NCBI GenBank assembly: GCA_964621085.1
Contig: CAZUKY010000004.1
Coordinates: forward strand, 1,266-65,265
Direction of reading: 5' to 3'
Source of the DNA: an uncultured Gammaproteobacteria bacterium
Lineage (GTDB): Bacteria > Patescibacteriota > Patescibacteriia > JACQRZ01
Length of the DNA stretch: 64,000 nt
In this document: in pieces, positions 10,432-11,198 of the stretch
Layout: the number at the start of each line of letters is the position of its first letter
How positions within the stretch are numbered: position 1 is the first letter of the stretch
Translations under genes and position numbers: made by a program
Notes under the pieces: model-generated
Databases searched by the model: none
Seen by the model: only the letters and a program-made list of their open reading frames with translations
What the model was told of the DNA's origin: nothing

Positions 10432-10563
10432 AGATGTGATTGAGAATTATTCACATTTGTTTTTGATAATAAATGTCCATGATCCTCTAGACAAATTTAA
10501 CGGTTCTGCTATCGTACCTTTTCGTCCTAATCCGCAGCCATTTTCGAGGAGGAGTCGAGAAGC

Positions 10564-11124
10564 ATGGCGAGAGGCCTTCAACAGGAAATGCCGTCACTGT
10601 CGTATCTTGGCACCGATCTCGGGCCGGATGCGAGTATCTGGATAACTCAGCAGGATCGAAATGCGCGACTGTACGGGAACAATACCCAGCGGCTCACGCA
10701 CTGCTACATCGGCAGCATTCCAGACGTGGTCGGCGAAGAGTACCTCGAACAACTAGTCCTTCGACTCATCGAGGTTGTGGATAAGAGCCCGCACGCGGCC
10801 ATTTCGGTCAGCTACGGCAGCCCGTTCGCGATTCACGTGCCAGTCCGGTGGATCCGCTCCCGCGTTCCGGGAACGTCCAACGAGTCGGCGCCGCGGCTGG
10901 AGGTGATCCTTCCTGTAAAGGAGCCGGGTGCCGTACCGCAATGGATGAACGCCATGCATCGGCGAACGCTCCGGCGGATAACCGACTTCGGGAGTCCCTT
11001 GAACGGATTCCTTACGGTGCCGATCGCGATCGATACGCTGGAGCCCCCATTGCGCGCGCGCAGACTCATGCAGTTCCTCATGGTTCCCGACTACACGGTG
11101 ATCTACCGCTCGGTTTCGTCGTAG
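10564..11124 (+). CDS. Hypothetical protein. A GC-rich opposite-strand gene inserted between atpG and atpD.
   Basis: 186 aa, GC-rich, with a GAGGAGG SD about 10 nt upstream of the ATG. A candidate promoter TAGACA-N16-TATCGT lies at 10493-10520 and an imperfect hairpin with a T-run follows at 11144-11178. Its composition is unlike the flanking atp genes. Confidence 0.5.
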   Translation: MARGLQQEMPSLSYLGTDLGPDASIWITQQDRNARLYGNNTQRLTHCYIGSIPDVVGEEYLEQLVLRLIEVVDKSPHAAISVSYGSPFAIHVPVRWIRSRVPGTSNESAPRLEVILPVKEPGAVPQWMNAMHRRTLRRITDFGSPLNGFLTVPIAIDTLEPPLRARRLMQFLMVPDYTVIYRSVSS

Positions 11125-11143
11125 GGACCCGGATCGCATGCAT

Positions 11144-11178
11144 TCCCTTTTTCGCCGGTACGGCCTGCCCGTATCGGC
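11144..11178 (+). terminator. Hairpin with T-tract after the inserted ORF
   Basis: gccggtacgg-cctgc-ccgtatcggc followed by gcttcttttt. Confidence 0.4.
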
Positions 11179-11198
11179 GCTTCTTTTTGAAGAACAAC

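Follow-up and report, generated by a model that had tools for sequence, protein, structure and literature searches.

An antisense orphan gene separates atpG from atpD in an Uhrbacteria-like bacterium, at a junction that holds apparently unrelated genes in related genomes

RESULTS AND DISCUSSION

An antisense gene within the ATP synthase operon

The stretch of DNA analyzed here (the window, 64,000 nucleotides) derives from an uncultured groundwater bacterium, by way of a contig contained in run SRR5011273, and carries a complete operon for an F-type ATP synthase on its minus strand, arranged atpB-E-F-H-A-G, gap, atpD-C. The gap, which we call the slot, holds the gene that is the subject of this study: a 186-amino-acid (aa) open reading frame (ORF), ORF186, on the plus strand and hence antisense to the operon. 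Placement of AtpG identifies the organism as a Candidatus Uhrbacteria-like member of Patescibacteria, for which the nearest AtpG in a collection of 5.8 billion proteins is just 62% identical. The operon and the elements of the slot are as follows.

14945-15685, minus strand: atpB
14589-14843, minus strand: atpE
14056-14568, minus strand: atpF
13661-14059, minus strand: atpH
12107-13627, minus strand: atpA
11199-12074, minus strand: atpG (F1 gamma subunit, PF00231), upstream flank of the slot
10432-11198: atpG-atpD gap (the slot), 767 bp, holding the antisense gene
11153-11189, plus strand: intrinsic terminator of ORF186, an 11-bp perfect stem (11153-11179) with a 5-nt loop, then CTTCTTTTTG
10564-11124, plus strand: ORF186, 186 aa, orphan protein-coding gene (ORF call, codon score, no homologues)
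10546-10554, plus strand: Shine-Dalgarno sequence GAGGAGGAG, 9 nt before the ORF186 ATG
10488-10515, plus strand: promoter-like site of ORF186, TAGACA-N16-TATCGT, with TG preceding the second hexamer (extended -10)
10466-10494, minus strand: candidate atpD-atpC promoter, TTGTCT-N17-TATTAT (scan, 9/12 matches; function presumed)
9061-10431, minus strand: atpD (F1 beta subunit), downstream flank of the slot
8622-9038, minus strand: atpC

The initial annotation had placed atpG and atpD about 770 bp apart and had described between them a plus-strand 186-aa ORF with a strong Shine-Dalgarno sequence, a candidate promoter and a hairpin followed by a T-tract. Each of these elements is found at the position given above, and the presence of its own promoter-like site, ribosome-binding site (RBS) and terminator supports the description of ORF186 as an autonomous opposite-strand gene interrupting an operon that most bacteria keep contiguous. 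Promoter-like sites are enriched in the region (3 found by the scan vs 0.8 expected from shuffled sequences), and the -35 hexamers of the ORF186 promoter and of the candidate atpD promoter overlap on opposite strands. The T-run of the ORF186 terminator (11180-11189) ends ∼10 nt short of the atpG stop codon (11199-11201), and on the atp strand the stem is followed by no U-run, so that the terminator is one-directional. Transcription of the gene does converge geometrically on that of the atp operon, as had been proposed, but the terminator probably blocks its entry into atpG.

A structured non-coding RNA in the gap was considered and rejected. No Rfam family reaches its gathering threshold anywhere in the window, an Rfam search of 10300-11300 with an E-value threshold gave one chance-level miRNA match only (E 0.33), and folding z-scores of the flanks (-1.9 to +0.6) reveal no structure beyond chance.

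ORF186 is protein-coding and host-adapted

ORF186 is a genuine protein-coding gene, host-adapted and lineage-specific (an orphan), and is already called as a gene in public data. By our own estimate, chance would leave 186 codons open in ∼1% of such gaps at local GC. Under a codon model trained on 35 long window ORFs, the ORF186 frame outscores the other five (+0.11 per codon), where real genes of the window score 0.05-0.43 and non-coding frames of those genes have a mean of -0.39 (sd 0.26, maximum 0.16), and GC at the three codon positions (0.62/0.45/0.74) follows a pattern typical for coding sequence. The protein is predicted to be soluble, with a pI of 8.8.

The gene had initially been read as a recently acquired cassette, clearly richer in GC than the atp genes. 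Some observations would suit a foreign origin of this kind: its GC of 0.60 exceeds the mean for the window (0.53), its codon score lies near the low end of the window-gene range and it has no homologues anywhere. The excess over the flanking genes is nevertheless slight, with GC of 0.57 for atpG and 0.58 for atpD and GC3 of 0.74 for ORF186 vs 0.66 and 0.71, respectively; by our figure neither GC nor GC3 differs from the flanking atp genes by more than 2-3 points. Windows of 300 bp within atpD itself climb to 0.61-0.64, and windowed GC and codon usage both place ORF186 inside the window-gene range (0.44-0.65 for GC). Composition and codon usage are thus host-like and give no compositional evidence for recent acquisition. 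Hallmarks of mobility are likewise absent from the slot, where we found no integrase, no recombinase domain in ORF186, no tRNA and no meaningful flanking repeats, the search for repeats or target-site duplications yielding short chance-level matches only; nor are there phage, plasmid or viral-contig relatives. With eight related genomes also carrying a gene in the slot, each occupant with the GC of its own host (see below), the recent-cassette reading is largely refuted and we consider it highly improbable.

Slot proteins have no detectable relatives outside the slot

ORF186 has no match in Pfam, NCBIfam, PHROGs or PADLOC, nor among PDB sequences, phage or plasmid records or viral contigs, and a word-index search of ∼5.8 billion proteins recovered only ORF186 itself. 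The ORF found in the slot of one relative (L001) likewise recovered only itself from the 5.8 billion proteins. When 1.84 billion representatives were scanned in full with HMMER, only four multi-repeat proteins scored against ORF186; they were dismissed as spurious, their scores being sums of many short stretches. The slot proteins of the eight relatives described in the next section have no match in the same four family libraries; sub-threshold matches to MTase_II (E 0.023) and to a PHROG family of unknown function (E 0.03) were treated as noise. Slot proteins are without exception predicted to be soluble, and the majority are basic (pI 7.8-10.6).

It is conceivable that the occupants are free-standing selfish elements resembling homing endonucleases, in which a nuclease would cut the empty atpG-atpD junction and repair would copy the gene in, so that unrelated nucleases might share one site. 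Small, soluble and mostly basic proteins encoded between near-invariant coding sequences, and present patchily (in 9 of 21 relatives, counting the window), are what such an element would be expected to look like. There is precedent between conserved genes of T4-like phages (PMC2988022), some of it in unrecognized families (PMC6083498). Furthermore, LAGLIDADG meganucleases make up 13 of the top 50 Foldseek matches of the ORF186 model against the PDB, all of them non-significant and obtained with a single-sequence AlphaFold2 model of pLDDT 41, and thus a lead only. The best of these matches has an E-value of 0.49 (all lie above 0.4) and every probability is <0.15; the corresponding model for the L001 ORF (pLDDT 31) is equally unreliable. 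Against this explanation, Pfam, NCBIfam, PHROGs and PADLOC reveal no known nuclease or mobile-element domain in any of the nine slot proteins, the flanking target sequences show no carrier-specific change within the clade, and carrier status that is stable in subclades, together with host-like composition, gives no sign of recent spread. We therefore regard homing as distinctly unlikely.

The slot is occupied in nine of 21 members of one clade

Junctions were gathered from reference genomes, metagenome contigs and contigs encoding AtpG homologues. In a tree of AtpG, AtpD and AtpA the window falls into a clade of 21 members (100% bootstrap), nine of which carry an antisense gene at exactly the atpG-atpD junction.

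Window: antisense ORF of 186 aa
L001: antisense ORF of 193 aa
L002: antisense ORF of 187 aa
L169: antisense ORF of 187 aa
L086: antisense ORF of 204 aa
L167: antisense ORF called at 196 aa, or 206 aa if begun at an in-frame upstream ATG that has a Shine-Dalgarno sequence
L170: antisense ORF of 221 aa
P0042 contig: antisense ORF of 198 aa and a co-oriented ORF call of 35 aa
L168: two antisense ORFs of 289 and 97 aa, in a gap of ∼1.5 kb

The gap measures 701-751 bp in L001, L002, L086, L167 and L170. The remaining 12 members (L081, L058, L082, L083, L084, L085, L004 and L162-L166) have no insert, their atpG and atpD being 4-141 bp apart. Flanking sequences are strongly conserved throughout the clade: the AtpG C-terminus, ITQEIAEISSG[KR]AALE, is near-invariant and the AtpD N-terminus highly conserved. 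Carrier status is uniform in every well-supported subclade, while the deep nodes have bootstrap values of 7-31%. Across carriers, GC and GC3 of the slot genes follow those of the flanking atp genes over a GC range of 0.43 to 0.60, with the pair in L168, ∼5-9 points above its flanks, as the exception. This tracking implies that the slot genes are long-term residents and not recent arrivals.

The initial annotation had looked to this junction in related genomes for evidence bearing on recent acquisition. As it turns out, the slot is indeed occupied in relatives by genes of host-like composition, but these are not detectable homologues of ORF186 and most members of the clade lack an insert.

The 141-bp spacer of L004 (6921-7063), which holds no slot gene, consists of GAATTAAGAATTAAGAATCAAG-type units arranged as a long inverted repeat, and could be a terminator or attenuator, or the remnant of a deleted slot.

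Occupants fall into at least six apparently unrelated families

Only two pairs of slot proteins show recognizable similarity. Those of L086 and L167 are 53% identical, in a pair whose AtpG and AtpD are 80% and 95% identical, respectively. Identity at the three codon positions of this slot gene is 0.67/0.78/0.39, with pN 0.28 and pS 0.76 (saturated), and its dN of 0.35 compares with 0.136 for atpG and 0.035 for atpD. These substitution patterns indicate that the gene is under protein-level purifying selection and evolves fast. The second pair, L002 and L169, is 68% identical (AtpG 78%), and purifying selection is likely to operate in this family as well.

All other pairs lack similarity by blastp, phmmer --max and tblastx, which excludes frame-shifted similarity as well. 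Between families, blastn with a word size of 7 is also negative, Smith-Waterman and semi-global alignments reach z-scores of at most 2.1 against 300 shuffles, and hhalign of two-sequence profiles gives probabilities below 1%. Likenesses seen by eye between families (such as a helix with a strand after it, and hydrophobic strands at the C-terminus) failed the shuffle test. By these comparisons the occupants form at least six apparently unrelated families, namely those of the window, L001, L002/L169, L086/L167, L170 and L168.

Distance alone could in principle account for such a result, and a single ancestral, fast-evolving slot gene that diverged beyond recognition and was lost in some lineages, with fold and function conserved, is the explanation that we take most seriously beside our own, although we doubt it. 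Carriers have the junction, the strand, a similar gene length and the layout of RBS and terminator in common, homologues are found at the slot and nowhere else, and the dN values of the L086/L167 pair attest to fast evolution; tree parsimony, moreover, requires ∼4 losses compared with at least five gains. The rate of divergence can, however, be extrapolated. Distances between ATP synthase proteins of different families are 2.0-3.6 times those within families. If bit scores are assumed to decay exponentially at each family's own constant rate, between-family comparisons should score 40-110 bits at the L086/L167 rate and 110-190 bits at the L002/L169 rate, and the observed scores do not exceed ∼20 bits. 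Simple failure of homology detection, in the sense of PMC7660931, is thus disfavoured. In addition, strongly conserved blocks within families (for example HFSSLFLTK.EG.PGKKGF and CLHTLKTAVLDP) are missing from the other families, and L168 carries two genes of very unlike size. On this extrapolation, non-orthologous replacement or episodic acceleration is favoured over plain detection failure.

Carriers share features of a putative regulatory scaffold

The survey of RBSs and terminators covered the carriers with DNA, namely the window, L001, L002, L086 and L167-L170. A GGAGG-type RBS precedes the slot ORFs of the window, L001, L002, L167 and L169 and the first ORF of L168 (L168a); that of L086, GAAGGA, is weaker, and inspection revealed none for the second ORF of L168 (L168b) or for the annotated start of L170. 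A hairpin and T-run abutting the atpG stop codon recur in L086 and L167 and, by eye, in L001, L168 and L170. L002 shares the promoter layout of the window (TAGACA-N16-TAGATT with TG). The 11-mer TAGACAAATTT is common to the window and L002, a length attained in 3 of 500 shuffles, and CTATGCTATTTT is common to L001 and L167 (2 of 500 shuffles). Promoter-core strings shared between families in this way suggest a common scaffold; they would also suit a single diverging gene.

The arrangement suggests how the two transcription units might be expressed. ORF186 would be transcribed alone from its extended -10 promoter, and its transcript would stop ∼10 nt short of the atpG stop codon, thereby shielding atpG from antisense transcription. 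With no U-run behind it on the atp strand, the hairpin downstream of atpG may let operon transcripts continue across the insert, antisense to the slot mRNA, and atpD-atpC could be expressed in this manner and/or from the back-to-back candidate promoter. The start sites of the two candidate promoters would lie ∼60 bp apart and the promoters would compete for polymerase, making mutual interference between expression of the slot gene and of atpDC plausible from the layout, in line with the initial suggestion of an antisense or attenuation element for atpD and atpC.

This raises the question of whether the slot serves the operon itself, as a lineage-specific F1 regulator or assembly factor, or as a cis-acting unit in which antisense transcription tunes the beta and epsilon subunits relative to those encoded upstream. 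The fixed position between the gamma and beta subunit genes, the overlapping -35 hexamers of divergent promoters in the window and the antisense read-through that the one-directional terminator would permit all fit such a role. On the other hand, nothing is conserved between families and 12 of the 21 clade members manage with no slot gene. A role purely in cis sits poorly with selection at the protein level in one family and likely a second, and a role in the enzyme finds no support in ORF186, which does not resemble AtpI, epsilon, zeta or any other known family associated with ATP synthase and, with its opposite orientation, promoter and terminator, departs from the co-oriented accessory genes of ATP synthase operons. 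We find this explanation quite improbable.

Interpretation as an old slot with variable content

Relatives hold genes of similar size that appear unrelated at the same spot, and we therefore interpret the locus as an old variable slot and not as a recent foreign insertion. Our tentative preference, which we hold at slightly less than an even chance, is for a long-lived, clade-specific slot of single origin that splits the atp operon and whose content has been replaced by non-orthologous genes. The architecture would have arisen once, early in the Uhrbacteria-like clade, and been lost several times thereafter, and replacement of the coding content would most plausibly have proceeded by recombination in the near-invariant flanks provided by the 3′ end of atpG and the 5′ end of atpD.

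Several observations weigh against this interpretation. Homologues of each slot family were found only at the slot, and searches revealed no donor or second genomic context for any of them, where a circulating pool of cassettes should leave homologues elsewhere. Narrow sizes (186-221 aa in eight of nine carriers) and uniform orientation suit a single diverging gene better, and the shared promoter-core strings likewise count against replacement. As the deep branches are so poorly supported, one origin followed by losses is inseparable from at least five independent gains. The structure models (pLDDT 41 and 31 only) lend no help, and at the scan threshold the candidate atpD promoter is present in the window only and in none of the relatives scanned.

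A more far-reaching form of the variable-slot interpretation, which we consider rather unlikely, is that of an ancient, idiomorph-like hypervariable locus, in which a conserved scaffold, made up of a promoter back to back with that of atpDC and a terminator adjoining atpG, houses unrelated or only structurally related genes of ∼190-220 aa that are swapped by recombination in the flanks. Such genes could constitute a new family of selfish or conflict genes with site specificity, of nuclease, toxin or immunity type, sheltered in an essential operon and transcriptionally coupled to how the beta and epsilon subunits are expressed.

Comparison with known systems

Searches of the literature turned up no account of a slot for antisense genes between atpG and atpD. 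Hypervariable or idiomorph-like loci are variable accessory loci with conserved core-gene flanks that are exchanged by homologous recombination in those flanks. Like them, the slot combines near-invariant flanks with classes that are deeply divergent or unrelated and yet internally conserved, and with varying presence or absence; unlike them, it holds a single gene and not an island.

Syntenic orphan genes (PMC7028367, PMC7660931) offer a second framework, since they too lie within conserved flanks, in one orientation and at roughly one length, as a middle gene with no detectable homologue, and the slot gene is conserved and under purifying selection within close pairs. The slot differs in being antisense inside an essential, normally contiguous operon, in containing at least six apparently unrelated families within one clade, and in that the rate test predicts orthologues to be still detectable.

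The free-standing homing endonuclease genes of T4-like phages (PMC2988022; F-CphI, PMC6083498) are comparable as small autonomous genes between highly conserved genes that are patchy among relatives, and unrelated ones may use the same intergenic site. In contrast to these, the slot proteins have no detectable nuclease domain and reside in a cellular genome, and the slot is antisense, with its own promoter and terminator, a host-adapted composition and stable carrier status in subclades.

Additional ORFs also break the F1 gene order in other lineages. In Magasanikbacteria loci, genes of 234-248 aa lie between atpD and atpC, and in Pyrinomonadaceae loci genes of ∼259 aa lie between atpA and atpG. 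Loci with extra genes are L020, L023 and L098-L101 (atpD-atpC gap), L041, L045, L071, L074, L077, L130 and L145 (atpA-atpG gap), and L035 and L103, with an ORF of 539 aa. Unlike the slot genes, these are co-oriented with the operon and, as compared by size alone, the same size recurs within a lineage. Antisense genes of at least 186 aa were found only in the atpG-atpD slot of the present clade; the Acidobacteria loci L057 and L073 have antisense ORFs of 99-105 aa in the atpA-atpG gap. Set against the extra genes of other lineages, only the Uhrbacteria-like slot is both antisense and variable in sequence.

On its own, ORF186 adds another hypothetical gene to a genome of the candidate phyla radiation (CPR). 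Across the clade, however, the slot forms a compact natural experiment between two of the most conserved genes in biology, and makes the origin of orphan genes, whether by runaway divergence, replacement or de novo emergence, directly testable on a locus of 750 bp. It also indicates that the canonical atpG-atpD linkage can break and stay broken for long periods, which bears on ATP synthase subunit stoichiometry in small-genome Patescibacteria. Interest in the locus would rise considerably if the genes in it turned out to be selfish or conflict genes of a new, site-specific class.

Minor observations at the atp loci and in the window

A 128-aa ORF on the minus strand overlaps ORF186 (10753-11139). 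It was rejected as a real gene on its codon score of -0.06, with two stops in frame across the region, and on the analogous case of L086. There, both strands are open over ∼600 bp (4892-5518, plus strand, 208 aa, vs 4885-5499, minus strand, 204 aa) in a locus of 43% GC, a GC content at which such length is unusual. We regard the 208-aa ORF, which lies on the atp strand, as a shadow frame because it is not conserved in the homologous locus of L167, where the longest open stretch is 118 codons.

Inside the 5′ end of atpD (10372-10386 and 10390-10408, minus strand), the initial 60 nt of coding sequence contain on the atp strand a strong promoter-like site, TTGAAA-N17-TATAAT (11/12 matches, 10379 to 10351), and also a terminator-like hairpin with a T-run (10408 to 10390). 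Both are probably chance matches or by-products of the A/T run encoding FFEK. Tandem A/C-rich repeats directly upstream of atpD starts that lack a Shine-Dalgarno sequence were noted in L001 (CTAATCACT), L002 (CCTCTAACCT) and L083 (AAGATTTACGATTT), and may be unstructured leaders for translation initiation.

Downstream of atpC, the window has two extra genes (within 6145-8557) where L165 and L166 run directly into a NuoB-like Oxidored_q6 gene, which in the window is located at 6145-6663. They encode a Peptidase_C39_2-like protein (6832-7650) and a 277-aa ORF product (7724-8557) that has no Pfam match, is hydrophobic by eye and is possibly a membrane protein. Farther away, a tRNA-Ser (31989-32061) is the single tRNA in the 64 kb. 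Three plus-strand ORFs of 317, 279 and 349 aa (19331-20284, 44257-45096 and 45190-46239, respectively) stand among mostly minus-strand genes; they have no Pfam match and low codon scores (0.05-0.09), and at 0.63-0.65 they are the GC-richest in the window. This profile resembles that of ORF186, and they could be further orphan genes or shadow frames.

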